This document shows positions 1,637-45,864 of a stretch of DNA of 64,000 nt, piece after piece. The position numbers and the translations under genes were made by a program. Under the pieces are notes generated by a model. It saw only the letters and a list, made by a program, of their open reading frames with translations. It did not search any database and was not told the origin of the DNA. This DNA comes from an uncultured virus (IMG/VR IMGVR_UViG_3300032093_000023) (Duplodnaviria > Heunggongvirae > Uroviricota > Caudoviricetes), in the IMG/VR virus record IMGVR_UViG_3300032093_000023; one strand, given 5' to 3'. How positions within the stretch are numbered: the first letter of the stretch is position 1; every line of letters begins with the position of its first letter.

Positions 1637-2508
1637 TATTTACATTGTTTTTTATATTCATCAATACTTTCTTGTGATATTCCATATTGATTAGAATCAT
1701 CCTTAGAATTAACCCAGTCTTTAAAACCTTCTATATCTTGTTTAGAACCTAATATATGTATTTGTTTTTGAGTTTTAACAAAGTGTTGTATACCTCTTTC
1801 ATTAGTAATAAGATTAAAAGTTGTTTCATTTGTAATATCAGGATTATTTAAAATTACAGCAACTATTTCTCCATAATTTTTAGCAGCTTTTTGAGAGGGT
1901 GTAAAATAATATCCGTACCCTAATTCCCCACTTTCATAAGCCCTATCATCATCAGATGGATATAACTCAGAATTATTTTTAAAACCTTCTGTAAATATTT
2001 GCTTTTTATTAGTAGTTCCATGATAAACAATATCTTTTACTTTACTATTAGGGAATATACTATCTAAATACGCAGAGTATTCTTGTGAAGTTCCTATACT
2101 AGCTAATTCAGGAGATTGTTTAAAAATATCACTTACACCTTCTTTAGTTTCTTGTGATATACCATAATCTACATCATCAATCTCTCCTTGTTCAATTGGA
2201 TCATTAAATTCTTGTTCCATTAAAGCAACATCGCCATTAAAAAAGTCTAAATCTCTTTCAAATGTTTTTTCAGCTAATTTTTGTCTTATTAATTCTCTGT
2301 CTACAAGTTTTTGAAAATTATTAACAATTACTTTATAACCACCTATCCCAGAATGTTCTCTAACATCAGTTAAATTAAATCCCCAAAGGTTATTTAAATC
2401 ATCACTTATTTTTTTAGCTGCATTTTTTGAAAAAATATCCTGTTTGTTAGGTAATTTTTCATCAATACTTTTATTTATTGTTTTTTCTATTTCTATACTA
2501 CAAGCCAT
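1636..2508 (-). CDS. Virion-associated ADP-ribosyltransferase (ART-PolyVal-like) domain protein
   Basis: VKDIVYHGT...GELGYGYYFTPS...AAKNYG...HILGSKQDIEGF matches the HG...GxYF ART signature of phage polyvalent proteins. Confidence 0.7.
   Translation of the reverse strand: MACSIEIEKTINKSIDEKLPNKQDIFSKNAAKKISDDLNNLWGFNLTDVREHSGIGGYKVIVNNFQKLVDRELIRQKLAEKTFERDLDFFNGDVALMEQEFNDPIEQGEIDDVDYGISQETKEGVSDIFKQSPELASIGTSQEYSAYLDSIFPNSKVKDIVYHGTTNKKQIFTEGFKNNSELYPSDDDRAYESGELGYGYYFTPSQKAAKNYGEIVAVILNNPDITNETTFNLITNERGIQHFVKTQKQIHILGSKQDIEGFKDWVNSKDDSNQYGISQESIDEYKKQCK
1668..2166. repeat. 19-bp direct repeat (1668-1686 and 2148-2166) bracketing the ART domain
   Basis: tttcttgtgatat[t/a]ccata occurs twice, 480 bp apart and in frame; both copies encode YGISQE. 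Confidence 0.8.
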
Positions 2509-18138: not shown

Positions 18139-21100
18139 TTATCTGTCAGATACTCTAAATATAGACTTGAGATTGTGTATTATAAATCTCACATTTGGAC
18201 TGTTGTTGTAATATAGATCAATCATCATCCATTTATCTCTTATCCTCTCTCCAAATGTAGTTTTAGTTAATTTACCTGGATCAAATAAAGAAGCTGTAGA
18301 AGGAGTCGTTGTGTTATAGTTAAACTTATTTCTAGGTACTTGTAAATTAAATCCTTGTTCAACCTTTCTCAAATTACTATCTGGAGCAATAGTTAAATTA
18401 ACCCAATCTGTATTTTGATATTGATTATAAACTCTAACCTTACTAAATGTTTCAAATGGTTTATTTACATCATCTGGATAACTAATAAAGTCTAAAGAAG
18501 GTTCTGATGGAGAACCAGGATAAACATTCAAGTCATCATTAAACTCTAAATTATCATCAATAGCTTCAGACATCCAAGTTAAGTTATCTAATACTTTAGT
18601 AAGTAAAGGTTGCTCATTAAGTAATATTTTTAATGTACTAGGATATTGTACATTATAGAAATTACCATAAGGACCATAATTGTGAAACCATACTTTATTA
18701 TCTCTATTAGTACTTAATAGATATTTATTACTATTGATATATAAATTAGGTGTAAAATTATACATACCTGTAAATGCAGCCAATACTTCAGAATAAGCTA
18801 GAGTAAGTAATTCTTGTTTTGTTACTTTCTCAAAAATGGTATCTGGCATATTTAAAAAAGTATATAAAAATTCATTATGATAATAATCATAAGTTGTTAG
18901 TATACCTTTATTAATAATAGGATTATCATGTTTTAATATATCATCATGTAATCTTTTAATTACAAAGTTTCTCTGTCCTTTAATATCAGATATAGGAGAT
19001 ACACCTTCACCGTTAAATGTGTATATTTTTTTATGTCTAGCATCAACAAATGAAATAGCTGACTGAGATCTATATACAGACCATTGATGTGAAGTACCAG
19101 TATCTATTGCTTTATAAAAATGTTTTTGAATAACTTGACTATCAGTACCATTACCTAATTTAATAGATGTACCTGCACTATCATTAATCATAGATACAGG
19201 GTTAATTAATAGTTCACCAATACCTCTTTCTTGTAAGTAATACATCTTTTCTTTAAGAGATACTAAAGCCATAATTTGACCATAATTACCTTCTACATCA
19301 TAGAAGTTATTAGTTAAATATTTACTCCATGAATCTTCTATTTCATTATCAAACTTAATTTCTGAAAAGAATACTCTATTTCTCCATACATCATTTACTT
19401 GAAAGTTTAATGGTTTAGGAAAAAATGTAACAACATTCTTTTCATTAGAATGGTATGTAGGATAACCATATTGATCTTCAGAACTATAAAGATTATTTGT
19501 AAGTTGTGTATCAATATGCTCTCCAAATCTCATGGCTTGATTATTTTGATTAGTACAAGGAAATAAATAACTTACACTAATATTGAATTTGCATGTAGCT
19601 ACTTTGCTAGGAAATCCTAATGCAACATTTCCCGGATCATCAGTAAAGGTACTCTCATACGGATAATATGCAAATTTAGGAGCATTACCTAAATTTTTAG
19701 ATATTTTCTGTAAATCCCAATAGTTCATATGAATATCTCCACCAAAACAATTAATATCTAATACTAAATTATTCTTTAATGTTTCATTAATTCTTTTTAA
19801 TGGCACAAAGCTACCACATGGAATATATATACTATTTGTTCTTGCAGCATATGTATTACCACCATATTGATTAAGATTAGGTCTATAATATAATGCTATT
19901 AGTTTATTACCTTCAGTATCGGCAGTAGTTTTTCCTATACCTGATATACTAGTGTCTAAATTATTAGCGAGACAAACAGCTACAGTTTTACATCCCCATC
20001 CAGGTACATCAGATGTACTAGTACCTGAAGGGTAGATAGCAAGACCAGGATTTCCAAAACTTTTCATGTGATTATATAAAGTATAACCACCTACTGTTAC
20101 TGAATTATTTCCACCAGCAACCATACTACCTTCTGTAATATCGTAATTAGTTAATGCTGTAGAAGCATGTACCGCCTCTTCAACATAAAATAATAAATAA
20201 TAAGGCATTTCATCAGAATCATAGGCTGTTTGAAATTTACCACAAGCTGTATTAAAACAAGGAAGAGGTCCAAATGATCCATTCCCACCAACAAACCCGT
20301 GCGGATTACCAGGAATACCATTATTTGATGGAGGTATAGTACCTCTAGTTTTTATACCACTACCAGCGGGACCATTAGTCCCTTCATTATTTAACCAGTC
20401 TTCTAAATTATCAAACCCTAATCTATATCTAGGATTAGCAACACCACTTCTAGCTCTAGACCTATTAATCGCTTTTACTCTAGACCTAATTAATAACTTA
20501 TCACCATTTCTATAATTATAACCATTTAATAGTAAGTCAAATGAATCAAAAGTCATTACTTTTTGACCTATACCCGTTTCACCATCACCTGAAGCAACTG
20601 TATAATCTGGACATAATGTTTCAATAGCTCTTTGACTAGGATTAGGCATATAAATAGTAGCTGTAGTAGTTGCACCTAAAAGTACCATAAATCCAGGTAC
20701 TGCTTTATAATGAAATCCCCCACCTAAAACAATAGGTCCATCTGAAGGTTGTCTAGGTTGAGTAATAATACCACATCCTAATATTGTTTTATCAGATTCA
20801 GTTCTTTCAACTCTAACTATTTGATAACCCCCAATAAAATCTTTAATTGTAGAAATATCTATAGTAAATTTAATATAAAGTATTTGACCATAAATATTAT
20901 CATTATATTCAAACGAATTTCTAAAATCTGTAATACCTGTAGTTTGAGCAATTGTAGAAGGATTACTATTAGTATCTCCAGTTGAAGGCATTTTAATATC
21001 ACCTATCCATTCAGTAAAGAAAGGATTACCTTGTAAATCAAAGAATTGTATTCCTAATCTATATATTTCTTCTTGTTGAAACCCTTTCATTACAGAAGTT

Positions 21101-23061
21101 ACGTATGGATTTTTAAATCCTGGAACTCCTTGAATAGGGTATGTTTGATTTTCAGAATCTGTAGTAATACTAGGAGCTACAAAGTCAAGTAAATCTTGAG
21201 GAATTGTCATACCTGAAATACCACCTGTACTTTCTGGTTGATTGCTAAATGGTGGAATAACTTCTGGATTAATTAAATAATCTCCTGAATCTCCTTTAGT
21301 CACATTTAAGTCAGAGATTTTTATAGTTTCAGTACCAAATTCATAAGATATAAATCTACCTTTACCGCCTAATACTGATGTACCAGGTTTATAGAAACAA
21401 GCATTAGATGATTCATCACCATTAGTATCATAATACTCATTAATACAATCTTCTGTTTGAGGTAAAGCTTGAGCTTGAGTAGATGTATGTTGTGTAGGTG
21501 CAATACCATTGTTAGATAAATAAATATCATCAGCACCTGATGTCTTAGCTCTAAAAGCTCTAGCATCAAATATTGCACTAATATCTGATTGTGTAGTATA
21601 TTTAACATTACCCCAGAATAATCTATTATCTTTAGTATCTACTGTTTTAGCATGTGTAAATCCTGTAGCTAAATTTAAAAACTCATCTAGTTCAATAGTA
21701 GCATAGGTTGATAAATCTGTTATTGTAATATAGTTATCTACTAATAATCCAATACTAATTTCAGGTTTAACGTAAATTAATGGTATCTCAGTTTTAGAAG
21801 TTCTACGCAAAATAACATATTCTATAGTATCGTAAGATGTATCCAGGTTAGATACTTTCCAAGTAATACTTCTTAATGAAGCTCCCCCATTTCCTTCATA
21901 TACTTTATAATTAGCATTAGATGTGTCATTAGGGTTTTCATTAATTATATGTACCATATTAGATGTTTGAGAATAATTAGTAACAGCTCCTGCTGCTTTC
22001 TTTAATCTATAACATAATTCATAAGTACCTGCAGATAAATTACCAGCACCAATATTATCAAGTAAAGGTACTTCAAAAGATACTGATGGAAATACATATA
22101 ATTGTGCGGGATTCATAGCCATCAATTGAGGCTGTGCAACATTTATATTTCTAATCTTATTGTAAAAATCTGTCCAATAAATACGTTGAATATTTGATGA
22201 TTCATATCTACCTAAAATAGCACTAGGTGCAATAGGATGATATTTAGTAAAATCTATATTATTAGAATATATTAAAGTTAATGTACCAGCTTTAGTAATA
22301 TCATCAATATTTAATTTCCATATAGCACCTCCGTGTCCAAATGTATCATTACCAGGTAATTCACCAGCTACACCAGCAGGACCATATGTCCCATCATCTG
22401 GAGCAGTTAATATATAAATATCATCTAATATAAATGTAGAACCAATTGGAATTATATCATCACTTAATACTTTTGACACATAAGGTTTTGTAGTATTTTG
22501 AGTTAATGAAGGTGATACTTTATCACTATTAATAAATTTAAATACTGCTTTTGTACCTCCTGTAGATGCGGAATAAGATATACTTATTATAGTAGGTACT
22601 GAAGCTACAGGAGAACATCCTGAATAAACTGGTTGACTATAAAATACTACATAATCATCTTCATAAGCAACACTAAATGTTTTAGTAGCTACAGTAGTCC
22701 CTGTATACTGATAACAATTAGGATAATTTTTTATTATATAATTATATAAATCAATACCTTGAGTACTATTAGAAATCTCTAAAGTACCAACAGTTGTACT
22801 ATTTATAGTAATTGTAGCTACATTTTTTGTATCATTTGGTGCTACATCTGTACCTTTAATTAATTGTAATTTATATACTGCTTGTAAATCAGGAAATGTT
22901 ATAGCACATTGGTTACCTTTAATATTAACTAGTGCCCCATTAGATCCACCAGCTTCAGTTAAAGCTCTAAAATTTAAAGCTTGTAAATATGTATCTTTAG
23001 ATTGTACCTGTTTAGATAAATCTGAAGACATACCGTTTGAAAATGTGTTAATACTTTCCAT
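18139..23061 (-). CDS. Tail muzzle/stabilisation protein (crAss gp44 / P22 gp10-like)
   Basis: Starts NTFSNGMSSDLS...YLQALNFR; contains RIYWTDFYNKIR, KDNRLFWGN, YRLGIQFFD and YDVEGNYGQI; ends ERIRDKW. 1640 aa, beta-rich. Confidence 0.85.
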   Translation of the reverse strand: MESINTFSNGMSSDLSKQVQSKDTYLQALNFRALTEAGGSNGALVNIKGNQCAITFPDLQAVYKLQLIKGTDVAPNDTKNVATITINSTTVGTLEISNSTQGIDLYNYIIKNYPNCYQYTGTTVATKTFSVAYEDDYVVFYSQPVYSGCSPVASVPTIISISYSASTGGTKAVFKFINSDKVSPSLTQNTTKPYVSKVLSDDIIPIGSTFILDDIYILTAPDDGTYGPAGVAGELPGNDTFGHGGAIWKLNIDDITKAGTLTLIYSNNIDFTKYHPIAPSAILGRYESSNIQRIYWTDFYNKIRNINVAQPQLMAMNPAQLYVFPSVSFEVPLLDNIGAGNLSAGTYELCYRLKKAAGAVTNYSQTSNMVHIINENPNDTSNANYKVYEGNGGASLRSITWKVSNLDTSYDTIEYVILRRTSKTEIPLIYVKPEISIGLLVDNYITITDLSTYATIELDEFLNLATGFTHAKTVDTKDNRLFWGNVKYTTQSDISAIFDARAFRAKTSGADDIYLSNNGIAPTQHTSTQAQALPQTEDCINEYYDTNGDESSNACFYKPGTSVLGGKGRFISYEFGTETIKISDLNVTKGDSGDYLINPEVIPPFSNQPESTGGISGMTIPQDLLDFVAPSITTDSENQTYPIQGVPGFKNPYVTSVMKGFQQEEIYRLGIQFFDLQGNPFFTEWIGDIKMPSTGDTNSNPSTIAQTTGITDFRNSFEYNDNIYGQILYIKFTIDISTIKDFIGGYQIVRVERTESDKTILGCGIITQPRQPSDGPIVLGGGFHYKAVPGFMVLLGATTTATIYMPNPSQRAIETLCPDYTVASGDGETGIGQKVMTFDSFDLLLNGYNYRNGDKLLIRSRVKAINRSRARSGVANPRYRLGFDNLEDWLNNEGTNGPAGSGIKTRGTIPPSNNGIPGNPHGFVGGNGSFGPLPCFNTACGKFQTAYDSDEMPYYLLFYVEEAVHASTALTNYDITEGSMVAGGNNSVTVGGYTLYNHMKSFGNPGLAIYPSGTSTSDVPGWGCKTVAVCLANNLDTSISGIGKTTADTEGNKLIALYYRPNLNQYGGNTYAARTNSIYIPCGSFVPLKRINETLKNNLVLDINCFGGDIHMNYWDLQKISKNLGNAPKFAYYPYESTFTDDPGNVALGFPSKVATCKFNISVSYLFPCTNQNNQAMRFGEHIDTQLTNNLYSSEDQYGYPTYHSNEKNVVTFFPKPLNFQVNDVWRNRVFFSEIKFDNEIEDSWSKYLTNNFYDVEGNYGQIMALVSLKEKMYYLQERGIGELLINPVSMINDSAGTSIKLGNGTDSQVIQKHFYKAIDTGTSHQWSVYRSQSAISFVDARHKKIYTFNGEGVSPISDIKGQRNFVIKRLHDDILKHDNPIINKGILTTYDYYHNEFLYTFLNMPDTIFEKVTKQELLTLAYSEVLAAFTGMYNFTPNLYINSNKYLLSTNRDNKVWFHNYGPYGNFYNVQYPSTLKILLNEQPLLTKVLDNLTWMSEAIDDNLEFNDDLNVYPGSPSEPSLDFISYPDDVNKPFETFSKVRVYNQYQNTDWVNLTIAPDSNLRKVEQGFNLQVPRNKFNYNTTTPSTASLFDPGKLTKTTFGERIRDKWMMIDLYYNNSPNVRFIIHNLKSIFRVSDR

Positions 23062-26261: not shown

Positions 26262-26602
26262 TAATCAAATTTTTTAGCTAAATACGCTTTCATTATAATA
26301 TACGCTGAAAATCCATCAAATGAATAAATACCTTTATCTCTTAAAGCATTAAAATCATTTAATGAACCTTTCCAATAATCATATTCACCAATACCATCTA
26401 AGTTAACATCATTACTTAATGTAATTAATATTACATCTTTAGTTAAAATATTAGTACCAATAAATTCATTGGTATCTTTATTATAATAATTTAAATTACA
26501 ATCTAACAAAATAGTTTTATTAAGCTTATTATCAACAAATTTAATAAATTCTATCTCTCTTTTAAGTCCAGTTTTAGGACAAATATCTTCTTTAATTATC
26601 AT
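26261..26602 (-). CDS. Hypothetical protein (possible fibre chaperone)
   Basis: 113 aa, coupled by TAATG overlaps on both sides, directly after a fibre-like gene. Confidence 0.55.
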   Translation of the reverse strand: MIIKEDICPKTGLKREIEFIKFVDNKLNKTILLDCNLNYYNKDTNEFIGTNILTKDVILITLSNDVNLDGIGEYDYWKGSLNDFNALRDKGIYSFDGFSAYIIMKAYLAKKFD

Positions 26603-28074
26603 TACTCGTGATATAAGTTAGGTGAAATTACAAACTGTAATACTTGTGAAGCTGTTGCCGCACCTGATAATATCTTACCCATCACACCAACAAATTCACC
26701 TGGATTAACAATAATAGGCGCTTCAAAATCAAATTGTACAGATGTACCTTGTTGACCTACAACAGCGGATACAGGAATACTAACAACACCAATAGGTTGT
26801 GGTCTTCTAATTTTAGTTGTATTATTAACAAAAGAACCTGCCTCAGTAGTTGCTAAAGAAGCTGCTGTTGAACCCCATGCTAACGCCAACGCAATAGTTG
26901 TAGGTACAGTTGCAGAGTTAGCTGCACCGGCATTTACTATATCAACTCTAATACCTCTAATGTGCATTACTCTACCAGTTTGATTGACACCTCCTAATGG
27001 ATTTTGATAACTAGATATAATAACATCAGTTGCAGATGTAGCAGCAGCATTCATTTGAAATATACCACCTAAGAAAGCTCCTAGTGCAGCAGTAGTATTA
27101 GTTGCAGCAGCAGCAGTTGGTAAAGTTGTATTAGCCCATTGTATTTGTTGCGCTCCATTTGTAAATGTACCACCATCTAATGTTTGTAATCCTAATCCTG
27201 AACTAGCTAATTGACCAGCCCATGTTTTATTAGTTGCAATATCCATTAAAGTTACAGTAACATCTCCAACTTTAAATATCATATTTGGAGATGAACCAAC
27301 TGTACCAGAATTATATTTTTGTATAAATACTGGTAAAGATGTAGATAAAAAAGCTTGTCCTTGACCAACAGGTATCATTTGCTCCCCATATAATACATCA
27401 TCAATCCAATATTCTATTTCTCGTTCTCCTACAACTATACTATATTTTGTATTTGTATTTAAAGGAAAATTAGTTATAGTTGTTTCTAATGCTTGTTTAG
27501 TGGTAGTTCCAGAGTTATATCTAATACATCCATATAAGCCAGCACTTGTAAATTCAAACCATACACCATCCACAGGTTCAGCAGCTCCAGTAGCTACACC
27601 TAATCCTGCTTGGAAAACTTCATTAGCAGTTGGATAAGCTGTAAACGCCCCTGTAATTTCAGCGCAAACTGGCGCAGTTCCTATTAATGGAAAATACCTC
27701 CATGTTTGTAAATACGCAAAGTTACCTGAAACTGTTGATGTACCAGCAGCATTTACATTTAAGAAACCTGCTGATTGTGTCATTGTCATAGTAGTAAATG
27801 AATGCTTCCATACACCTGTATTTTGAGTAGTAGCGTTAAATGTAGCACTAAACAAAACTGTATCCATACCTACACGACTTCTAAAATCTTGTGATACTTC
27901 TTGAGATTTTAGATAAGCTTCACCTGTTTTAGAACCAGGGTCATTCTCACTAAAAGCTCTTACGGCACCTACATTACCTGGATTTGTAGCTACATCTGTT
28001 TCTGTTACTACTTTAGCAGCATTAAAACTATTTACTTCTTGTTCGTATATTGAACCTATTATTCTTACGCTCAT
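26602..28074 (-). CDS. Beta-rich spike/receptor-binding-like protein
   Basis: Thr/Ala/Gly-rich beta strands and a lectin-like segment (DGVWFEF...YSIVVG...YWIDD). Confidence 0.55.
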   Translation of the reverse strand: MSVRIIGSIYEQEVNSFNAAKVVTETDVATNPGNVGAVRAFSENDPGSKTGEAYLKSQEVSQDFRSRVGMDTVLFSATFNATTQNTGVWKHSFTTMTMTQSAGFLNVNAAGTSTVSGNFAYLQTWRYFPLIGTAPVCAEITGAFTAYPTANEVFQAGLGVATGAAEPVDGVWFEFTSAGLYGCIRYNSGTTTKQALETTITNFPLNTNTKYSIVVGEREIEYWIDDVLYGEQMIPVGQGQAFLSTSLPVFIQKYNSGTVGSSPNMIFKVGDVTVTLMDIATNKTWAGQLASSGLGLQTLDGGTFTNGAQQIQWANTTLPTAAAATNTTAALGAFLGGIFQMNAAATSATDVIISSYQNPLGGVNQTGRVMHIRGIRVDIVNAGAANSATVPTTIALALAWGSTAASLATTEAGSFVNNTTKIRRPQPIGVVSIPVSAVVGQQGTSVQFDFEAPIIVNPGEFVGVMGKILSGAATASQVLQFVISPNLYHE

Positions 28075-28850
28075 GATATTATTTCTTGATAATTTATTTT
28101 ATATCGACCCCACGTTCTATTATTAGCAACTGCTATAATATTAAAGCTTACGTTTGGGATTATGTTATATGCGGATGCTGTAATGTTTTCTAAATAAGCG
28201 TCTTCTCCTGTATGGTCAACACCATCGTTTTCAACAAAACATACTATTTTAGAAGATGCCGTTACCCACAATGCTGGTATTGTAGTAATAACCACATCAT
28301 TTTCTGATAATACGCCAAATTTACCAAAATTAATATTTATAGTTCCTGACTGTAAATCTAATTTGGTAATAATACTAGACTGAGTTTCATCTCCTGTATT
28401 AGAACCACTTAAAGTAGTAATGCCTAATTTAGCTTTTATGGTAGCGTTTGTTTCGTCACCAGTATTTATACCACTTGTGTTTCCTAATACAGTTAATTCG
28501 GCATCGGTAACAAATCTTTTATTTGTACTATCTGTAATATTTGCAGTTGTCGAAGTATCTAAATTAACTACATTTGATAACCCCACATCACTTTTAGTCA
28601 ATCCTAAAGCAGTTTTTAAAGCGTTATAGGCTTTTAAAAACCATCCACCACCATCGGTAGCTAAAACTCCACTTCCAGCCGAATTAATTGCAGCTATTGT
28701 TGTTAAATCAGAATCTAATGGTTGCTTATTTGCTAAACTTGGAACTGTTGGATTTGGGTACGTACCAGATAAATCACCACCAGCAGGTCCAGTAGGACTG
28801 CCACCGCCACCGCCTCCACTACCACTTGACTGAAAACCAAAATCTTCCAT
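28071..28850 (-). CDS. Fibre/spike protein with N-terminal poly-Gly hinge
   Basis: GSGGGGGGS followed by fibre modules AGGDLSGTYPNP, KQPLDSDLT, DVGLSNV and SGxNTGDE repeats. Confidence 0.65.
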   Translation of the reverse strand: MEDFGFQSSGSGGGGGGSPTGPAGGDLSGTYPNPTVPSLANKQPLDSDLTTIAAINSAGSGVLATDGGGWFLKAYNALKTALGLTKSDVGLSNVVNLDTSTTANITDSTNKRFVTDAELTVLGNTSGINTGDETNATIKAKLGITTLSGSNTGDETQSSIITKLDLQSGTININFGKFGVLSENDVVITTIPALWVTASSKIVCFVENDGVDHTGEDAYLENITASAYNIIPNVSFNIIAVANNRTWGRYKINYQEIIS

Positions 28851-34392: not shown

Positions 34393-34393
34393 T

Positions 34394-34840: not shown

Positions 34841-34852
34841 ATTATTTTTTTT

Positions 34853-35911: not shown

Positions 35912-35912
35912 T

Positions 35913-37184
35913 TTAGTAAGGTAATGTAGGGTCTATTTGCAATGTGTTTATATATGTATTTAATGTTCCATTTTCTAATGTAGGAGTATTTGCAATATTA
36001 GAATGTATATAATAAACAGATAAATTACATCCAGTGAAAACCTCAATACTGCTTCCGTTTTGAGAATATATAGTTGTATTATATAATTTTAAAATACCAT
36101 TTTGACTTAATGACGTTCTTCCACTTGTAATAGCTGAATTACACGCTATTTCTCCATTGTCTATTTTAGTCCTTACTTGACAATTATTTAATATTAATGT
36201 TTGCGAAACAGTAGTTGCAAAATCTATAGTAGGACTTAATCCTCCTAAATATGTATCTATATTAGCACCAAAAACCTCTAAAATACATCTTGATTCGCCC
36301 TCACTAGCCGCCATATTAATAGCATTATGAAATGCCTGTAATGTTGATTTTGCCTGTATATTATTGCATATTATTTTACAATAACCACCAGTTATAGCGA
36401 TAGTATCATTAATTGAATTACTTATTAAGTCACAATTTATAAGAATGTTATTGTTTGATTTATTGATAATAATAGCTTGTCCAAAAGCTCCTCCATAATT
36501 AGTTCTTTCTATTTTAGAAGACCCATATATTATATTATGCCATAAACCATCGCTAATTGATTCAAAACTAACGTTATTATCAGAAATACATCCATTTATA
36601 ATACTATTACCTAAGTATAAATCAATATATTGTTTTAAATTAATATCTTCTTCATAATATCCATCCTCAACTATTACCTGACATCTTTCATTTTCTGTTC
36701 TTGTAGAATAATATGTATCTAATGCTGAAATCGCAGCGTTTATAGTTAAAAATGGAGCGTCAAATCGTTCTACTAATCCAGTTGAATCGTTACCGTTTTT
36801 CATTACATAAGCAGTATTTTTAACAGTAATAGGAACACTTATAATGCTAGGAGAAACAAAAGAAGCTGAATAATCTAAATTACTACTAACAACAACATAA
36901 GCACTTATTGAATTTTGATTTAAAATAATACTTTGTTGGTTATTTATTTTAAATCCTGTTGGTGCAACTATTGTAATATTATTTGTAGCACAATTACCGC
37001 TTAAATCTTTAATATAAAGTGTATATAATGTACTCCAATAATCGGCAGGAATTTCCTGTAAATTAATAGTACAAGCAATGGAAGATGTATCGACATTTAA
37101 CAAAACATCGCTATTACTTACCATAACGTTTCCGCTAACCGTACGTTCATTATTCCTATATTTTGTACTTGGTAAAACTCCCAT
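35913..37184 (-). CDS. Spike with beta-helix (pectate-lyase-like) C-terminal region
   Basis: N-domain paralogous to 29199-30734; AYVMKNGNDSTG...PFLTINAAI then Ile/Asn/Cys-rich repeats. Confidence 0.6.
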   Translation of the reverse strand: MGVLPSTKYRNNERTVSGNVMVSNSDVLLNVDTSSIACTINLQEIPADYWSTLYTLYIKDLSGNCATNNITIVAPTGFKINNQQSIILNQNSISAYVVVSSNLDYSASFVSPSIISVPITVKNTAYVMKNGNDSTGLVERFDAPFLTINAAISALDTYYSTRTENERCQVIVEDGYYEEDINLKQYIDLYLGNSIINGCISDNNVSFESISDGLWHNIIYGSSKIERTNYGGAFGQAIIINKSNNNILINCDLISNSINDTIAITGGYCKIICNNIQAKSTLQAFHNAINMAASEGESRCILEVFGANIDTYLGGLSPTIDFATTVSQTLILNNCQVRTKIDNGEIACNSAITSGRTSLSQNGILKLYNTTIYSQNGSSIEVFTGCNLSVYYIHSNIANTPTLENGTLNTYINTLQIDPTLPY

Positions 37185-38296
37185 TAGAATATCATTTTAT
37201 TATCTCTTAATTCTTTATAAAAATACTTTTTCAACATTTTTTGTTCATAGTAAAAAGCTATAGAAACAGTACAGCCAGCTAAAATAGTGTATCTTAAAAT
37301 ATCCATCCCATCAGGAACGTAAGGTCTATTTAATTCCCTTTCAAAATTAAAAGCAATTATATTGCTTTGAAATTGAAATTTATCCAATAACTGTGGGATA
37401 TTAATTGGTGATGTATATGTAAATGCTCTTAAATCTTTTTGAGTTATCCCAAAATTAATATCCCTTTGAGCAAACAATATATTATTATTTGGAGCTGTAA
37501 TTGTAACTCTTGAATTAATAATTTTAGTTGGATTACTCATCATGTGAGATAAAACATCTGTATATTGTACACCGTCAACACCTTGCCCTGCTACCGAAAT
37601 TTTATCATTTATATTTTGACTTGTTGCTTGGTAATAATCTAAAGGAGTGCTAGGGTTAAATAACTCTACTGTATAATCTATATCGCTATTATTATTTATG
37701 ATAAATACTAATTCCTTTAATTTTTTACCATTGCAATATCCTATGTTTTTTAAATCAGTTTCTCCACAATCAGCATTACCTAAAATGAATTTATTAACCC
37801 CTTGAATAATAACATCCCTATCTCTAGGTATAATTACATTACTTAAAGGATTTTTAGCTTTACTGTGAATAGTTGCCTTATCTTTTACGCCCCACTCTTT
37901 ATGTAGCTTTAAAGAATTAATTATTTTCTTTTTAGGCGTCCTTTTGTTTTGATTTACAGAATTTTTATTTTGCTTACTCTCAAAAAAGTTTTGGTTTTGT
38001 TTTCGAGAATCGCCCTCAACGATTACGCTTCTATTACTTGGAACAATAACTTTATTTATACGTTCTTCATTTTTAGAGTGTTGTCTGTTTAAGCTTTTCA
38101 AAGAACTTTTAAAATCTCCAGTTAAATTACTGAAATCAATCCCTTCTAATTCATCAATAATTATAGTGCCTTCGCTTCTCTCTCCTTCTTTTTCATCAGG
38201 ATAATCACTTTCGTAATAATCGTCAAAATCGTAATAATAGGAGTCGTCTTCTGCAAAAACGCCATTAATATCGTCTATTATTTCTTCCTCGTTCAT
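37184..38296 (-). CDS. Minor/second capsid protein candidate, paralogue of 43546-44286
   Basis: C-terminal ~160 aa aligns by eye with the 246-aa protein (SPxN...LDxxQFQ...DG...LxxTxxA...IxxY); acidic N-terminus. Confidence 0.55.
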   Translation of the reverse strand: MNEEEIIDDINGVFAEDDSYYYDFDDYYESDYPDEKEGERSEGTIIIDELEGIDFSNLTGDFKSSLKSLNRQHSKNEERINKVIVPSNRSVIVEGDSRKQNQNFFESKQNKNSVNQNKRTPKKKIINSLKLHKEWGVKDKATIHSKAKNPLSNVIIPRDRDVIIQGVNKFILGNADCGETDLKNIGYCNGKKLKELVFIINNNSDIDYTVELFNPSTPLDYYQATSQNINDKISVAGQGVDGVQYTDVLSHMMSNPTKIINSRVTITAPNNNILFAQRDINFGITQKDLRAFTYTSPINIPQLLDKFQFQSNIIAFNFERELNRPYVPDGMDILRYTILAGCTVSIAFYYEQKMLKKYFYKELRDNKMIF

Positions 38297-38313
38297 AATT
38301 CACAAATATAGTT

Positions 38314-39102
38314 TTATATAAGCTTTTTAGCAAACTCTTCGTTACAAAACTTATCAATATAATCAACAATTTTACGCATACGTTGAATGTTACTGTCTGT
38401 TTGTGCTTTTAAGAAAACGTTAGCAAATACATGAATTGCATCAATTTTACTAAAACCTAATCCTAAATAAATATACAAAGCGTTAATATCAGCTCCAATT
38501 TCATTTGAAATCTCTAATCCCATTGTAGGATTTTTATACTTATGAGAAAATTCATGTAATAAAATAATCATTCTCATAGGTATAGTATATCTATCGAAAT
38601 TCCTTTTACTAACCTCTATAATACCTGTATTGTGACCTATACGAGCTGGTGTATTTAATACAGTTCCACTCATATAGTCTTTAATTACAGGAAAGTATTT
38701 AATTTTAAAATCCTTGTTTTTACTTGCAATCAATTTACCTTTTGGGTCTGCATTTGTAAAACCACAAGTCTGGCTAAACGTTAAAGCTAATTGAACAAAA
38801 TCTCTAGTTTCAGCGTCTGGCCAAACATTGTAAGTGGTTAATGGTTTTTCTTCGATTGTTACATCGAAATCTGTAAAACTTCTGTCATTTAAGTCTTGTA
38901 CTCCAATAATTATTTGACGTGGACTTACAGGAAAGCTAAAAAAAATAGTTCTTTTTCCATCTACTTCAATAGTTCTGTCGGAATATTTACTGTTTACTTT
39001 ATTGTAATCAGAAGAAGCAACCCTAAAAGTTCTTTTACCTTTACAAGTAATTGTTATATCTAATGCTAATTTTCTATTATCGGTATCCCAAACTTTGAAC
39101 AT
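38314..39102 (-). CDS. Zincin metalloprotease (HEXXH...ExxAD)
   Basis: IILLHEFSH (HEFSH at 38542-38556) followed by NEIGADINA, the gluzincin third-ligand motif. Confidence 0.75.
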   Translation of the reverse strand: MFKVWDTDNRKLALDITITCKGKRTFRVASSDYNKVNSKYSDRTIEVDGKRTIFFSFPVSPRQIIIGVQDLNDRSFTDFDVTIEEKPLTTYNVWPDAETRDFVQLALTFSQTCGFTNADPKGKLIASKNKDFKIKYFPVIKDYMSGTVLNTPARIGHNTGIIEVSKRNFDRYTIPMRMIILLHEFSHKYKNPTMGLEISNEIGADINALYIYLGLGFSKIDAIHVFANVFLKAQTDSNIQRMRKIVDYIDKFCNEEFAKKLI

Positions 39103-39124
39103 ATTGTTGTTTTTGTCTTTTTAA

Positions 39125-39229
39125 TTATTTTTTTACTTCTACAGCTTTTTTAGCTTTCATTTTTTTGTACAATAAGTATGCTGCAACTGCTGCACCAATA
39201 CCTAAAACAATTTTCACTTCTTTTGTCAT
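39125..39229 (-). CDS. 34-aa single-TM peptide
   Basis: Hand-translated MTKEVKIVLGIGAAVAAYLLYKKMKAKKAVEVKK; leader AAACAAATACAATG. Confidence 0.75.
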   Translation of the reverse strand: MTKEVKIVLGIGAAVAAYLLYKKMKAKKAVEVKK

Positions 39230-39270
39230 TGTATTTGTTTTTTGTTGTTATGTGCCAATATTGGCGGTTG

Positions 39271-39945
39271 TTATTTTTTATTTTTAGTTGCTATAACTAT
39301 GAATGTAATTAATAAACCTGCTGTTAAAGCTCCTAGTGCTATTTTAACAGGTGTACTCATTGTAGATTTTTTGTCTGTTTCAGTATAAACGGGTTCATCG
39401 CTTGGCAATCCAGAACCATAAGAACCTTCTTGTGTAGTTTGTTGACTTGTACTACCAAATATTCCTCCAAATAAATTATTTAAGATATTACCTCCAATAG
39501 ACGTTAATTTTCCTTTAAATTCTGGATGAGAATTTAACCAATCAGACGCTTTAATCCAAGTTCCTTTTGTTTTATCCCACAACATTCCTTTTTTCTTTTC
39601 GCCTTTTGGAGAAGTTTCTGAAACAGTATTTGGAAGAGGTGGAGTGCTTACAGCAGGGTTTAAAGTTGAAGCGAATTTCTTTCTTGCGTTAAAAAATTCA
39701 GCACCATAGTTAGACCAAGCTATTGATGTTTGTTTGCCAAATGGATAGCGTCCGTAACCTTCTCCTTTATTTAATTTACTCCCATTATTCCAAGTTGGAT
39801 ATTTAACATCTAACCAATCTTGAAAAGTTTTAGTTTCTTTAGAGTTTTCAGGTTTACCCGTTCCGTCAAACCCACTACAACCACAGGCGTTTGAGTAGTC
39901 TGAAACGTTACCATAAATTACCTTTCTTTTTGTCACTATGTCCAT
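39271..39945 (-). CDS. Tail-anchored membrane protein, possible peptidoglycan-binding-like domain
   Basis: YSNACGCSGFDG; FQDWLD...FGKQTSIAW resembles the 32867 protein; C-terminal TM followed by KNKK. Confidence 0.7.
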   Translation of the reverse strand: MDIVTKRKVIYGNVSDYSNACGCSGFDGTGKPENSKETKTFQDWLDVKYPTWNNGSKLNKGEGYGRYPFGKQTSIAWSNYGAEFFNARKKFASTLNPAVSTPPLPNTVSETSPKGEKKKGMLWDKTKGTWIKASDWLNSHPEFKGKLTSIGGNILNNLFGGIFGSTSQQTTQEGSYGSGLPSDEPVYTETDKKSTMSTPVKIALGALTAGLLITFIVIATKNKK

Positions 39946-39946
39946 C

Positions 39947-40462
39947 TTATTTTGTTTTAACGATTTTAATTCCTGTCTTAATATTTTTTCTGTGAGTGTA
40001 ATATGCTCCTAATAAACCGCCTACTAATAACCCAATTAATTTATTTTGGTGCGGTATTTTAGCATCTTCTTGCTCTTTTACCCACCCTTTTTTTTCTGCG
40101 TACCAAACAATAGCAACTCCTATAACTCCACCAATAATAGCCGAATCAATGAATCTTACTTTGTTCGTCTCTTTGCCTAATATTTTATTTTCAACTTGCT
40201 TTTTAATTAAATCGGTTTCGCCATCTGCATTACTAATCATTTCTTTTGTAACTAATTCTTTTACAGCCGAAATAGGAACTACAACAGCCCTCTTATGTAT
40301 AATATAATCAGGGTCTCCGTTTTCTTTAACTTTTAAAGTGCCGCTAATTACTTGTCCTTTTTTAAAAAAAGCGTATTTTACTTGTGAACGCAACTTAGGG
40401 TGTGAACCTCCGCTATAAACTACAGGACTTTTAAAAGATTTTACTACAATATATTTAGCCAT
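39947..40462 (-). CDS. Two-TM membrane protein with soluble beta N-domain
   Basis: ISNADG linker, then IIGGVIG and LIGLLVGGLLG helices. Confidence 0.7.
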   Translation of the reverse strand: MAKYIVVKSFKSPVVYSGGSHPKLRSQVKYAFFKKGQVISGTLKVKENGDPDYIIHKRAVVVPISAVKELVTKEMISNADGETDLIKKQVENKILGKETNKVRFIDSAIIGGVIGVAIVWYAEKKGWVKEQEDAKIPHQNKLIGLLVGGLLGAYYTHRKNIKTGIKIVKTK

Positions 40463-40463
40463 C

Positions 40464-40580
40464 TTATTTACCTTTAATTGTTATTTTATTTTTTTCAGCC
40501 TTAAATTTTTTATATTGGTCATAAGCTAAAATCCCAAATCCAATTAATGCTATTGCTCCGATTATTTTCTTCAAGTCCAT
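40464..40580 (-). CDS. 38-aa single-TM peptide
   Basis: Hand-translated MDLKKIIGAIALIGFGILAYDQYKKFKAEKNKITIKGK; fills the gap exactly. Confidence 0.75.
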   Translation of the reverse strand: MDLKKIIGAIALIGFGILAYDQYKKFKAEKNKITIKGK

Positions 40581-40581
40581 G

Positions 40582-40878
40582 TTATTTATTTTTATTCATT
40601 TTATAAATTACAAATCCAATTATAGATAAAGCAATTACTGAACCTCCTATAATTAAACCTACTTTAAGACCTTTACTCATCCCTTTTGGCTTTGGAGGTA
40701 ATGGAATAGGTGCTGATTGTTGTTGTATAGGTTCTGCTTGTTGCTTATTTGTTAAATTACCCACAAATCCCTTAACTTTACCACTACCAACTAATCCTTT
40801 TGCTTTATTTAAAATGTTATTAAAATCAAAGTTAGAATAGTCGTCTATTATTGGTTTATTTACTGATATAATTTGCAT
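40582..40878 (-). CDS. Tail-anchored membrane protein
   Basis: YSNFD motif, Pro-rich linker, C-terminal TM followed by KMNKNK. Confidence 0.7.
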   Translation of the reverse strand: MQIISVNKPIIDDYSNFDFNNILNKAKGLVGSGKVKGFVGNLTNKQQAEPIQQQSAPIPLPPKPKGMSKGLKVGLIIGGSVIALSIIGFVIYKMNKNK

Positions 40879-41568
40879 TTAGTTTCTTTTTTTTATTGCG
40901 TAAATAACTCCTCCTATTAATGCTAATCCTAACAAACTAGCTACTGAAATTAAAATAATTCGTTTTGTTTTACTAGACGCTTCGATTTTCTTTTGTGCCT
41001 CTATTTGTTGTGATTGCCTTTGCGCTAATATCGTTTGAACCATTTGTTGTTTAGCTTCTGCTTTTTTTGCAAATGTATCGGTTGCTCCAAACTTTTTAGC
41101 TCTTTGATTATCTGCTAATTTTCCTCCTAAACCCGCTAATCCTCCAACAGCACCAGCTATTGCTGTTCCCCAAACATTTGAATGTTCTTCGTCATCACTT
41201 ACAAAATTATCGTAAATATCAGCGTCAAAATAATTATATAAAACTTTATGAGTCGCCTTTAATCCATCTTCGTTATGCTCTTCTTCACCATTAAATGAAG
41301 CTGTTTTATTATTATGGCTTATTAAAAATGCAGCACCTAACAATAGTTTTTTGTTATTATGAATATTATCTAAAAATAAATCAACCAATTCTGCATCAGT
41401 CATTTCATTACTAGCAATTACATTAGCACTATTTAACATGAAAATAAAATCTTCTCGTTTAGAAACTAATAAACTCGCCAACTCTTCCATAACAACACGA
41501 TTTGCTTTTGACAAATCATGTTGTTTTAAGTAAGAAGATAATTCTTTATAATATTCTTTTTTTTCCAT
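40879..41568 (-). CDS. Tail-anchored membrane protein with internal Gly-rich hydrophobic segment
   Basis: HSNVWG directly followed by TAIAGAVGGLAGLGG, a coiled coil and a C-terminal TM. Confidence 0.7.
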   Translation of the reverse strand: MEKKEYYKELSSYLKQHDLSKANRVVMEELASLLVSKREDFIFMLNSANVIASNEMTDAELVDLFLDNIHNNKKLLLGAAFLISHNNKTASFNGEEEHNEDGLKATHKVLYNYFDADIYDNFVSDDEEHSNVWGTAIAGAVGGLAGLGGKLADNQRAKKFGATDTFAKKAEAKQQMVQTILAQRQSQQIEAQKKIEASSKTKRIILISVASLLGLALIGGVIYAIKKRN

Positions 41569-41576
41569 TTCTGGTT

Positions 41577-42479
41577 TTATTTAAAAACTTTTGCTTTATG
41601 TAAAGCGAAAATAATAACTGCTGCCGCTCCTAATCCAACAATAACTCCTTTGTTTTTTGCAAAGAAAGTTTTACCGTCAAATGAACTCATTTCGTCACCT
41701 TCCATCATACTAGAATCTTCTCCATCAGCTCCCTTTGCAGGAATAACTATTTTATTATCTCCAATAGTAGCGTTTAATCCTGATTGAACAGGAGTTAATG
41801 ATTTCATTCTAACGACAGCTTTAGCGTGAACTTCTTTCATTTTATCCAAATGGTTAACTCTTGCCTTTAATTCTTTTGCTGCTTTAGCAACCATATTAGA
41901 AGGTAATTTACCGCTTCTTAAAGCATCTTTTAGTTTGTTAACAGCACCCTCATGTTTAGCTATTTTATCTTTCATAATACCTAATCTGTTTTTAATTCTT
42001 TTACCAGAGGCATCAGACATTTCAGCATCAAATGAACTTGTTTCTCCTGACGTTTCAGCGTCAAATGAACTTTCTTCATCTGAATATTCACTATTATCCC
42101 CTAAAGGTTCTTGTGCTTCTTCATTATACGATTGTTCGTCTTGAGATGGCTCATTATACGATTGTTCCATTGGTTGTTGTTCTATTGGTTGTTCTTGTGA
42201 CATATCGTTAGATTCATTTTCGCTTTCAGGGTCATCTCCCATTCTTTTTCTAGCTTCTTTACGACTAGCTCTAATATCTTTACGAGTTTGACGAGCTTCT
42301 TGTTTAGCTGCAAGTCTTTCGGTTCTATTAGCAATTCGTGTCATTCTTCTTTTTTGTCTACGAACTTGTCTTCTAGCCCTTCCTCTTCCCTTTAATTCCG
42401 AATGCTCTCCAAACGCTTCCTCAAAAGAAACTCCTTGAATTTCTGTTTCAGGTTCTAATGTTATGATTCTAGCTTCCAT
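41577..42479 (-). CDS. Tail-anchored protein with alternating Arg-rich and acidic blocks
   Basis: HSELKG then RGRARRQ...; SSFDAE repeats; MSDASG then a basic helix; C-terminal TM. Confidence 0.75.
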   Translation of the reverse strand: MEARIITLEPETEIQGVSFEEAFGEHSELKGRGRARRQVRRQKRRMTRIANRTERLAAKQEARQTRKDIRASRKEARKRMGDDPESENESNDMSQEQPIEQQPMEQSYNEPSQDEQSYNEEAQEPLGDNSEYSDEESSFDAETSGETSSFDAEMSDASGKRIKNRLGIMKDKIAKHEGAVNKLKDALRSGKLPSNMVAKAAKELKARVNHLDKMKEVHAKAVVRMKSLTPVQSGLNATIGDNKIVIPAKGADGEDSSMMEGDEMSSFDGKTFFAKNKGVIVGLGAAAVIIFALHKAKVFK

Positions 42480-42487
42480 GTTTTAAA

Positions 42488-42955
42488 TTATTTAATAGTT
42501 ACTTTTTTGTTTTTTGTAACAGTTTTCCCAGCTACAAATCCTAAACCTGCTCCAATCAAAGTGTACATTAATTTCTTTTTGTAATCTTCTTTTTTGTATG
42601 TAGCATAGCCAAATCCTGCTGTTGCTCCTAACGCTAATCCAATTAAAGCATTTCTATCTTTTAATTGTGCTGGAATGTCAATGATTTTAGCCTTTGCATT
42701 TGCGCCATCTGCGCCTAATTTAACTTCTGTTGTTTCCATGTTTATTGGTTTTATTTTGTTTGTATATATTATTTCGTTGTTTGTAGTGTAAAAAAGCCTA
42801 TATTGGAACGTCTCACCTTTTCTTAAACCATTTACTAATTTAACGTCTCCAATTAATTCAGTACCTTTTGGTATAATAATATCTGTAGCTGTAAAGTTTT
42901 TATGTTCAGCGTTTGGTATTAATACTTTTGCATCTTCTATTGTAACTACTTTCAT
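42488..42955 (-). CDS. Two-TM membrane protein, architecture like 39947-40462
   Basis: Beta N-domain, LGADG linker, two Gly-zipper helices and a KKVTIK end. Confidence 0.7.
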   Translation of the reverse strand: MKVVTIEDAKVLIPNAEHKNFTATDIIIPKGTELIGDVKLVNGLRKGETFQYRLFYTTNNEIIYTNKIKPINMETTEVKLGADGANAKAKIIDIPAQLKDRNALIGLALGATAGFGYATYKKEDYKKKLMYTLIGAGLGFVAGKTVTKNKKVTIK

Positions 42956-42959
42956 AAAA

Positions 42960-43466
42960 TTAATGCTTATGGTGCATGAAAATTCCTAAAATTGCTACAA
43001 TGCCAATTACACTTAATGCAACTGTTACCGTATTATTACTTACAGATTGTTGTGGTTGACCAAATGATTCGGCATATCCACTAAATGACGATTTATTACA
43101 ACCGCAATTAGGGTTACCAGCACAATTTGAAAACTCTCCCGATTCACTTATATATTTTTTTAAGATGTCTTTTACACTATCCTCTGTCATGTCAATTTTA
43201 TGTTTTGTTTCTACAGATAATTCCTGTGGTTCTTTAACTGTATATTTTAAGATAAATTCTTTGTGCGGATGTATTTCGCAAAACTCTTTATCCATTAATT
43301 TCTTATCATCACTAGCCTTGTAAAGATTAGCTAATTTTAATTCTAAGTCTTTGTGATTTTTAGCGTCTGGTTGATTGTATTTTTTTAACAATCCCCTTGA
43401 CTTATCAGTTGATTCATTTGCTAATAAAGATAGCAACCCGTATATTTTCTTTTTTTGAGCTTCCAT
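42960..43466 (-). CDS. Tail-anchored membrane protein
   Basis: IHPHKEFIL, FSNCAGNPNCGC and a C-terminal TM. Confidence 0.7.
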   Translation of the reverse strand: MEAQKKKIYGLLSLLANESTDKSRGLLKKYNQPDAKNHKDLELKLANLYKASDDKKLMDKEFCEIHPHKEFILKYTVKEPQELSVETKHKIDMTEDSVKDILKKYISESGEFSNCAGNPNCGCNKSSFSGYAESFGQPQQSVSNNTVTVALSVIGIVAILGIFMHHKH

Positions 43467-43489
43467 TATAGCGTAATGTTTATTTTATT

Positions 43490-43525
43490 AAAAAAGCCCA
43501 CCAACTTTTATGGTGGTGGGCTTTT
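43490..43525 (-). terminator. Intrinsic terminator after the capsid candidate
   Basis: aaaagcccacca...tggtgggctttt perfect 12-bp inverted repeat, followed by a U-run on the minus strand. Confidence 0.85.
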
Positions 43526-43545
43526 AATTTTAGTGTTTATTAAGA

Positions 43546-44286
43546 CTATCCTTTAGAGATACTTTTAACAGCACTAGAAGTGTTAATAATTACTGGTGAT
43601 ACGTTTTTACCTGATAATGGACGAGCGTAAGCTTTGTTTAAAGCATTACCACCGTTTAATACTGCTTTACCAGAGATGATTGAAGTAGGGTATAAAGAGA
43701 TTACAAAAGTAGCAGAAGCTTTTAATGTAAATGATAACTCTGTATTACCATCAATCACGATAGATTTAGTCGTATCAATTACAGACGCTTGGAATTGGTA
43801 AGAATCTAACATTACAGATAAGTTTAATGGACTAGATTTAACGTTACCATTCGCATCTGTGTGAGCGATAGAAATTGTTTGTTGTAATTGCGCTGGTGTA
43901 CTAGAAGCAAAACGTTGACGAGATATTTTAAATACCTTGCTTTGAGATTGTGCAAATAATTGAGCGTAAGTACCACCTTGTAAGTTGCTAATAACTACAG
44001 CAGCAGGGTTACCAAAGTTAGTAACACCAAAAGCATATTTGTTAAAACCAAACATTACAGCCGTAACGTCATTAGTAGTTGTGTTTGTGTATTGAATAAC
44101 GTATGGGTCAGCTTCAACACGAGCAGAAGGAGCGCCATCAGCATTGTTGTAATCAAATTCATCGCCATCAGCGTTATTAAAATCGTCAAAATATGATTCG
44201 CCTTCTGCTGAATCATAAGAGTCAAACCCTGAGAAACTTTCTGTTCCAGAGATATAATTGCGTAATTCTTTTTCTTTATTTGTCAT
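43546..44286 (-). CDS. Putative major capsid protein (single jelly-roll-like, with acidic propeptide)
   Basis: Highly-expressed-style codons (CGT, ATC, AAC, TAC, GCT), own terminator, ~150-aa beta-strand core, and an acidic leader ending FNNADG/YNNADG. Fold inferred. Confidence 0.55.
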   Translation of the reverse strand: MTNKEKELRNYISGTESFSGFDSYDSAEGESYFDDFNNADGDEFDYNNADGAPSARVEADPYVIQYTNTTTNDVTAVMFGFNKYAFGVTNFGNPAAVVISNLQGGTYAQLFAQSQSKVFKISRQRFASSTPAQLQQTISIAHTDANGNVKSSPLNLSVMLDSYQFQASVIDTTKSIVIDGNTELSFTLKASATFVISLYPTSIISGKAVLNGGNALNKAYARPLSGKNVSPVIINTSSAVKSISKG

Positions 44287-44587: not shown

Positions 44588-44782
44588 TTTCTTTATTTTT
44601 TAGATGATTATTAATAATTGAACTCAAAAATATATAAGAAAAAAAACATTTAATAAATTATGAAGTAAACGTGTTTAGTTTTAAAGCGTATAATTATTAA
44701 TAAAATCAATACTTTAAGCTATGATACTTTTGTTTACTTTAATTTTGTTTTTTGATATTTTAAATTGTATTTTTGTGCTATT

Positions 44783-45514: not shown

Positions 45515-45532
45515 TATATAATATAAATAAAT

Positions 45533-45862: not shown

Positions 45863-45864
45863 GT

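Follow-up and report, generated by a model that had tools for sequence, protein, structure and literature searches.

A pair of paralogous genes

The sequence considered here is the 64,000-nucleotide stretch of the uncultured virus record IMGVR_UViG_3300032093_000023 (IMG/VR), whose whole length is termed the window below. It carries, on the minus strand, two genes encoding proteins of 246 amino acids (aa; 43546..44286) and 370 aa (37184..38296), here named SJR-1 and SJR-2 for single jelly-roll. An earlier note on this DNA had proposed that they encode two paralogous capsid proteins of single-jelly-roll type, and both open reading frames (ORFs) are indeed present at these positions and hold the strings that it quoted. 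The window itself is a composite: positions 1 to ~28,360 come from a crAss-like phage and positions ~28,000 to 64,000, which include the pair, from an unrelated virus that we call virus X. Synteny in virus X was followed through 12 IMG/VR loci, and its proteins were clustered on seven contigs of 36–84 kb.

The two proteins are paralogs. Residues 38–199 of SJR-1 align with residues 174–349 of SJR-2 (BLASTP: 45.1 bits, E 5e-10, 43/178 identical), and the comparison of the two family alignments (A1, 34 rows; A2, 56 rows) gave an hhalign probability of 96.3% (E 2e-9, 71 columns), which confirms the proposed parallel between the core of the first and the C-terminus of the second. BLAST clustering recovered exactly two members of the paralog family per contig in 7/7 related contigs. 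The SJR-1 gene is present in all 12 loci, and of 744 candidate proteins 468 fall into its family at E<=0.001; the 120 homologues listed are 55–96% identical, none is functionally named, and two bear Tara labels. The SJR-2 family comprises 96 representative clusters at E<=0.001, 67 of them at E<=1e-30.

SJR-1, the candidate major capsid protein, consists of a disordered acidic N-terminus (~10–57), a jelly-roll-like core (~58–205) and an extended, highly conserved and unmodelled C-terminal arm (205–246). SJR-2, the candidate second capsid or vertex protein, combines a jelly-roll domain (~180–370) with a disordered N-terminal half that is variable, acidic then basic, and holds two 'IVPxDRxVIVEG' motifs. 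Directly behind the SJR-1 gene lies a terminator-like hairpin followed by a T-run (43498..43516, minus strand), so that the terminator announced by the earlier note was recovered, by a consensus scan only. The codon bias that it also ascribed to this gene proved not to be distinctive, with an effective number of codons of 32.9 against 32.5–42.2 for 27 other window genes, several of them equally low, and was therefore dropped as an argument for expression.

Predicted folds

Both proteins are predicted to be jelly-roll-like beta sandwiches. The AlphaFold2 model of SJR-1 (34-row alignment) has a mean predicted local distance difference test (pLDDT) score of 66.1, with a core of ~9 strands whose blocks score 65–91 and with disorder at residues 10–57 and in the tail from 226. 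The model of SJR-2 (56 rows) has a mean pLDDT of 70.6 and a confident domain at residues 180–370 (blocks 74–97, mostly at least 87). Jelly-roll-like cores, as the earlier note had expected, behind disordered acidic N-termini are what the models and the fold searches give.

With the SJR-1 model, Foldseek against the PDB returned no match at E<=0.001, the best rows being C1q/TNF and picorna-like capsid proteins at E ~2e-3, and the ESM Atlas gave no usable match for this protein. The VIA fold search is independent of Foldseek and lists 50 rows per search, from which a missing family is not thereby excluded. Its result for SJR-1 reads, in the columns as given, 6.0, then 2y26_A nepovirus capsid (root-mean-square deviation (rmsd) 4.7, 118 aligned), then 15 and 0; that for SJR-2 reads 6.6, then 7vrr_A nucleoplasmin-like (rmsd 2.8, 91 aligned) with 6.5 for a nanovirus capsid and the FLiP capsid protein, then 45 and 0. 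Among the rows listed, the neighbours of both models are mostly viral jelly-roll capsid proteins, including those of FLiP, PRD1/PR772, STIV, SPV1, nanoviruses, geminiviruses and picorna-like viruses. Foldseek against BFVD found 188 matches to the SJR-2 model at E<=0.001, with a capsid protein of an uncultured marine virus at the top (E 2.1e-6); the named matches among the best are mostly single-jelly-roll capsid proteins, and whole-model TM-scores are low, mostly 0.1–0.25. A jelly-roll fold is by itself insufficient to designate a capsid protein.

Composite nature of the window

Downstream of the pair, the window carries the tail block of a crAss-like phage, recognized with Pfam by the muzzle protein (18139..23061; E 1e-126), Ring 1 (E 2.7e-44) and Ring 2 (E 9.3e-38) and accompanied by a 3730-aa ORF. 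Relatives of Ring 1 (73–76% and 59% identity) are found in genomes of ~87–94 kb, three of which have direct terminal repeats and are 100% complete according to CheckV. The SJR-1 family and the ATPase described below were both absent from five complete or near-complete crAss-like relatives (0/5), in a search that detected 3/3 known carriers as positive control. By BLAST, the complete genome G008 has homologues of window ORFs up to position 28,850 and, beyond it, of a single small ORF at 45.5 kb. An independent contig (G012) is 99.1% identical to the window over 17,059–28,359 and then diverges, with a continuation homologous to G008 that encodes a 483-aa protein similar to the crAss001 capsid protein gp32 (E 3.8e-39) and an 859-aa protein similar to the portal protein gp20 (E 6.2e-122). 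At the other end of the crAss-like part, record G001 overlaps window positions 1–16,965 at 99.99% identity and then runs into a replication block.

Read depth, taken from contigs of public runs, differs 7–10-fold across the junction in two runs: positions 24,000–28,007 have a depth of 50–62 in run X2 and of 203–239 in run X3, compared with about 8–9 and about 21–29, respectively, from 28,015 onward. Contigs break at 27,143–27,172 and at 28,015–28,044, and in X3 a contig of 36,206 bp starts at 28,015. In run X1 the crAss-like part has a depth of about 0–2, yet one contig of 15,000 bp (depth 25.6) spans 27,460–34,000, so that virus X occurs there without the crAss-like part. The junction coincides with a shared cassette (27143..28359) made of the 5′ part of a 490-aa gene and the 3′ part of a 259-aa fibre gene; some 0.9 kb of it is nearly identical in the crAss-like phage and in virus X, and the assembly path of the window crossed it. 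With contig breaks at both of its ends and a depth step across it, the cassette reads as a naturally exchanged fibre module, suggestive of a common host for both viruses. Since the window is composite, the crAss-like tail genes downstream provide no context for the jelly-roll pair.

Several other features of the crAss-like part may be recorded here. Besides the muzzle and the rings, it holds two cargo-sized proteins, and its 3730-aa ORF (2508..13700) has a counterpart of 3779 aa, with 70% identity, in the complete genome G008 (90 kb). The capsid (483 aa) and portal (859 aa) genes, as well as a 697-aa gene of terminase size, are located on G012, outside the window. The 490-aa protein (26602..28074, minus strand) is rich in Ala, Gly and Thr, has no Pfam, PHROG or PDB sequence match, and is 82% identical and syntenic in G008, being among the best-conserved genes of this crAss-like lineage. 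It was tried as a capsid or double-jelly-roll candidate and rejected as a crAss-like gene that is absent from virus X contigs; with an N-terminal part shared with virus X, it may be a distal fibre or receptor-binding protein.

The gene block and its ATPase

The pair brackets seven small membrane proteins and a protein with an HExxH motif, and spike genes follow. The synteny of this block, kept in 11–12 of the 12 loci, extends from the SJR-1 gene into the part of the 423-aa spike gene that encodes the N-terminal domain. Pfam, PHROGs and NCBIfam hold no family for any of its 11 proteins.

In the relatives, a P-loop ATPase of ~275 aa is encoded 3–8 kb upstream of the SJR-1 gene in 12/12 loci, with 52–79% identity between loci. 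Pfam assigns it to the FtsK/HerA superfamily, with matches to DUF87/HerA in 9/11 members (best E 3.6e-7), to TrwB in 10/11 and to AAA_22 in 10/11; in the ESM Atlas, DUF87 or Zot labels are found on 11–25% of the members of its look-alike clusters. The ATPase family numbers 630 members, and the contigs that bear them reach 111.6 kb. The ATPase gene is preceded by that of a 354–397-aa protein in 11/12 loci and, on six of the seven contigs, by that of a protein with a DnaA_C-like helix-turn-helix. All five metagenome-assembled genomes (MAGs) that encode the ATPase also hold the SJR-1 family.

All genes of the block lie on the minus strand, and six of the seven intervening membrane proteins have a clear hydrophobic anchor, C-terminal in five of them. 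Next to the SJR-1 gene are those of a 168-aa protein (42960..43466) anchored by residues 144–166 and of a 155-aa protein (42488..42955) whose two glycine-zipper-like hydrophobic C-terminal segments remain below the hydropathy threshold; both have orthologues in 11 loci. A 300-aa protein (41577..42479) combines a basic, Arg/Lys-rich N-terminal part and an acidic low-complexity middle with a C-terminal anchor (276–296); it has a BLAST match in 8/12 loci and one member per contig on the seven virus X contigs. Further along are a 229-aa protein (40879..41568; C-terminal anchor 201–226; orthologues in 11 loci), a 98-aa protein (40582..40878; C-terminal anchor 70–93), a 171-aa membrane protein (39947..40462; transmembrane segment 102–121; orthologues in 11 loci) and a 224-aa protein (39271..39945; C-terminal anchor 199–221), the last with a BLAST match in one locus only. 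Six additional membrane proteins are encoded downstream of the block, among them a GH108 endolysin with a C-terminal anchor.

The 262-aa HExxH protein (38314..39102), a candidate maturation protease, is among the best-conserved products of the block, being 55–62% identical in 11 loci. Its motifs TPARIGH, LLHE.sH and E.GAD show little or no variation among 12 sequences and form a zincin-like signature. At the other side of SJR-2, the gene of a 423-aa spike or fibre protein (35913..37184) starts in overlap with the SJR-2 stop; the N-terminal ~110 aa of this protein are conserved in 11 loci and its C-terminal part is variable. One locus (L008) has two consecutive spike genes with the same N-terminal domain. 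Complex prediction for the C-terminal domain of SJR-2 with the N-terminal domain of the spike scored 0.01 against a mark of 0.32 and is evidence neither way.

Short acidic-aromatic motifs such as 'SSFDAE', 'SYFDD' and 'NADG' recur in proteins of the region 28900–44286 and in their relatives. The patterns S-[FY]-x-[DN]-[GA], [FY]-D-[GA]-[DE] and [SN]-A-D-[GS], which were picked after inspection of the data, are 4–13 times commoner in proteins encoded by the jelly-roll block than in those encoded elsewhere on the seven virus X contigs, and may represent a processing or targeting signal. The 98-aa protein and a 154-aa protein encoded at 31694–32158 (minus strand) form one family of tail-anchored proteins, present in one or two copies per virus X contig; the 154-aa copy shows the basic-then-acidic 'SSFDAE' layout of the 300-aa protein. 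Between the SJR-1 gene and the genes upstream lies a small island on the opposite strand (44765–46380, plus strand) with three genes, one of 249 aa that resembles glycosyltransferases, one assigned to phrog_10066 and one to HAD_SAK_2. Four relatives have the 249-aa gene, and in three of them it shares the strand of the block. At 49497–55686 (minus strand) are found two large proteins of polyvalent type, one of 1267 aa, in which DUF5661 is combined with a DNA polymerase III beta-clamp domain, and one of 800 aa with LPD1. Related polyvalent proteins of up to 1732 aa are encoded upstream of the block on 7/7 virus X contigs, and one contig (G002) adds a Strawberry-notch-type helicase domain.

Gene content and host of virus X

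The families common to all seven contigs are in or adjoin the block, except for one family of polyvalent proteins. PHROG and Pfam scans covered 60 and 40 ORFs of G002 (84 kb), 37 and 10 ORFs of G003 (68 kb) and the virus X part of the window; they found replication genes, many methyltransferases, polyvalent proteins, a holin and endolysins, and no tailed-phage capsid, portal, terminase, tail-tube, sheath or baseplate family. Six-frame searches with the Pfam families Terminase_6N, Phage_capsid and Phage_portal were likewise negative (0/5 each, cellular controls positive), these being weak negatives as explained below. A six-frame crAss_MUZ search and a protein search with Ring 1 on virus X records, run with no positive control, gave no matches. 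The idea of a split terminase, raised by a Terminase_3C match of a 180-aa protein (E 0.0096, below the cut-off), was abandoned as the sequence is helical and charged. Among cultured phages, searches at the DNA and protein levels found nothing similar to the region, to the two paralogs, to the ATPase or to the HExxH protein.

Five MAG contigs with the ATPase are binned, three as Saprospira, Saprospiraceae or Bacteroidota and two as archaea, the latter placements being probably due to mis-binning. The host of virus X is probably a member of the Bacteroidota, because of these three bins out of five and because of the fibre cassette shared with a crAss-like phage, a group that infects Bacteroidota. 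Three virus X contigs (L005, L060 and L062) are filed under a giant-virus bin name (one) or in archaeal MAGs (two), and look-alike clusters in the ESM Atlas are labelled Uroviricota; automatic labels thus look unreliable for this lineage.

Interpretation of the pair

Taken together, the ATPase, the membrane proteins, the spikes and the lack of detected tailed-phage hallmarks on contigs of up to 88 kb point towards a tailless, membrane-containing build. We see an even chance that SJR-1 is the major capsid protein, and SJR-2 the second or vertex one, of a large uncultured virus that has a membrane and no tail and that probably infects Bacteroidota. Under this proposal SJR-1 would be the abundant subunit of the shell, since its gene is the first of the block and has its own terminator, and since the protein is well conserved and has a C-terminal arm suited to lattice contacts; such a conserved arm is the kind of element that could tie capsomers together. 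SJR-2 would be a second shell protein, most likely the penton-type vertex subunit bearing the spikes encoded immediately downstream, with its long arm reaching inward. The seven small anchored proteins would populate the virion membrane, the HExxH protein might trim the acidic N-terminal extensions, which the earlier note had taken to be removable, and the small FtsK/HerA-type ATPase would act at a packaging vertex to package the DNA. The assignment of a major and a second or minor capsid protein made by the earlier note has the paralogy, the predicted jelly rolls and a supportive context on its side; no sequence relation to Halopanivirales proteins was found.

Several points weigh against a tailless capsid. 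Neither paralog is similar in sequence to any solved structure, PDB sequence searches with the families A1, A2 and A3 having given nothing meaningful, and no sequence similarity links virus X to VP16, VP17 or the ATPase of P23-77. The ATPase, found in the block of the relatives, is missing from the window (best tblastn E 1.4); it probably lies beyond 64 kb, since an insertion on an 88-kb MAG contig places it there 11.6 kb upstream of the SJR-1 gene. One ATPase member weakly matches (E 2.8e-5) a PHROG that bears the name terminase large subunit. The virus X contigs are all incomplete (27–61% by CheckV) and the 88-kb MAG contig has no end repeat, so that capsid, portal and terminase genes could be located in unsampled DNA or be too divergent to detect. 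Indeed, the six-frame Terminase_6N search also missed four out of four crAss-like records that must encode a terminase (G008, G009, G011 and G012), which makes the six-frame hallmark negatives weak.

These gaps leave room for a tailed phage whose HK97-type capsid, portal and terminase are encoded in unsampled or divergent DNA, the pair then having an accessory role in the virion, for instance as cement or decoration proteins, as adaptors of fibres or spikes, or as adhesins. We regard this as unlikely, though deserving serious attention: the seven contigs, which together extend ~70 kb from the block on its upstream side and 39 kb on its downstream side, share no conserved family of portal, terminase or capsid size, and the most conserved genes are those of the HerA-type ATPase, the HExxH protein and SJR-1, a pattern that hallmark assembly genes should show. 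Such a density of membrane proteins would also be unusual for a tailed-phage head or tail block. That same density, together with an ATPase for which no viral profile gives a better match than those of TrwB and HerA and whose look-alike clusters carry DUF87 and Zot labels, would suit a non-virion membrane machine of the infected cell, be it a HerA/TrwB-driven system resembling DNA transfer or secretion, an envelope-remodelling device or an exclusion system, with the jelly rolls as soluble subunits; large polyvalent proteins, typical of transferred DNA, are encoded upstream as well. Such a machine appears improbable given that the ATPase, at ~275 aa and with no membrane segment, is far smaller than coupling proteins, that the block runs directly into spike or fibre and lysis genes, that the placement of the SJR-1 gene and its terminator are typical of an abundant late protein, and that the strongest database matches are viral capsid proteins. 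Finally, the location of the pair on the same strand and contig as the muzzle, Ring 1 and Ring 2 genes could make it a set of accessory capsid or tail proteins of the crAss-like phage that has these genes and the RNA polymerase genes downstream. For practical purposes this is refuted by the five relatives devoid of the SJR-1 family and of the ATPase, by G012, which continues past 28,359 into gp32 and gp20 homologues instead, and by the depth drop in X2 and X3, which set the block apart from the conserved crAss gene set (capsid gp32, portal gp20, rings and muzzle).

Implications

The tailless capsid reading extends to a broader proposal, which we hold tentatively and at somewhat less than an even chance, namely that virus X belongs to a lineage widespread in lakes and oceans that builds tailless membrane-lined particles from two single-jelly-roll paralogs unrelated in sequence to known capsid families, packages its DNA with a small FtsK/HerA-type ATPase and trades fibre cassettes with crAss-like phages that infect the same cells. 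This lineage would probably infect Bacteroidota; its contigs examined here measure 84–88 kb and those on record up to 112 kb. To our knowledge, bacterial and archaeal viruses of the tailless, membrane-containing type have small genomes, the largest cultured one measuring ~44 kb. If the proposal is true, virus X would represent a new virus group of high rank, the genome size known for tailless prokaryotic viruses would at least double, and the tailless membrane architecture would scale far beyond its known prokaryotic examples; if the capsid reading alone holds, it would still be a new large lineage of a known architecture. A capsid-protein family with no sequence relatives would furthermore bear on the question of a single or multiple origin of single-jelly-roll shells.

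Lake and ocean data contain protein clusters of this lineage by the hundreds (468 for the SJR-1 family and 630 for the ATPase), and virus-calling tools misfile its contigs in a giant-virus bin, in archaeal MAGs or under Uroviricota labels. A literature search, as far as titles and the openings of abstracts go, yielded no description of large tailless jelly-roll phages of this kind. The cassette that is nearly identical in virus X and in the crAss-like phage would be a concrete case of the exchange of a receptor module between unrelated virus realms, and offers a lead to the host.

Comparison with known systems

The Halopanivirales (Helvetiavirae), to which the earlier note had likened the pair, resemble virus X in the arrangement of P23-77, where the gene of a small P-loop packaging-type ATPase precedes those of two capsid-type single-jelly-roll proteins, accompanied by genes of small structural or membrane proteins. 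The order in P23-77 (ATPase, VP15, VP16 and VP17, then VP19–23) is broadly similar to that of virus X, except that VP16 and VP17 are consecutive, unlike the virus X pair, which lies ~5 kb apart with eight genes in between. No sequence link was found: hhalign probabilities were 1.1% for the ATPase, in which only the P-loop is common, 0.3% for VP16 and 0.05% for VP17. Of the structural comparisons that had been suggested, FLiP and SPV1 did turn up among the neighbours of the models; VP16 and VP17 were not among the 50 rows listed in either VIA search, which does not exclude their family. Virus X also differs by its scale, with contigs of 84–88 kb or more against 17 kb for P23-77, and by its likely Bacteroidota host. 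SH1 and HCIV-1 are Halopanivirales of the same two-single-jelly-roll type.

Tailed phages and the Tectiviridae provide other terms of comparison. In tailed phages (KHP40, Pam1), the jelly-roll proteins that serve as cement or decoration measure 120–140 aa, are devoid of long disordered arms and occur alongside an HK97-type capsid gene, which was not detected in virus X. The Crassvirales (crAss001-like) are its neighbours in the window and share the ~0.9-kb fibre cassette with it, on a separate replicon by read depth. In the Tectiviridae (Bamfordvirae), the vertex of PRD1-PR772 has the penton P31 with the spike P5, and the FtsK/HerA-type ATPase is P9. Virus X differs from them by genomes several-fold larger, and no double-jelly-roll capsid candidate was found in it: no other conserved protein of suitable size than the SJR paralogs was found on the seven contigs, of which part of the ORFs were folded.

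Portogloboviridae are a further parallel, since SPV1 has single-jelly-roll proteins for both shell and penton. This virus infects archaea, its genome is small and it is not known to have a packaging ATPase, and its structural match to the virus X pair is no better than that of unrelated jelly rolls. The closest counterparts of virus X in concept would be the viruses with two single jelly rolls, SPV1 and the PRD1 vertex; hhalign gives no relation to P23-77 and no single fold match is outstanding, but by analogy virus X could work like these systems.

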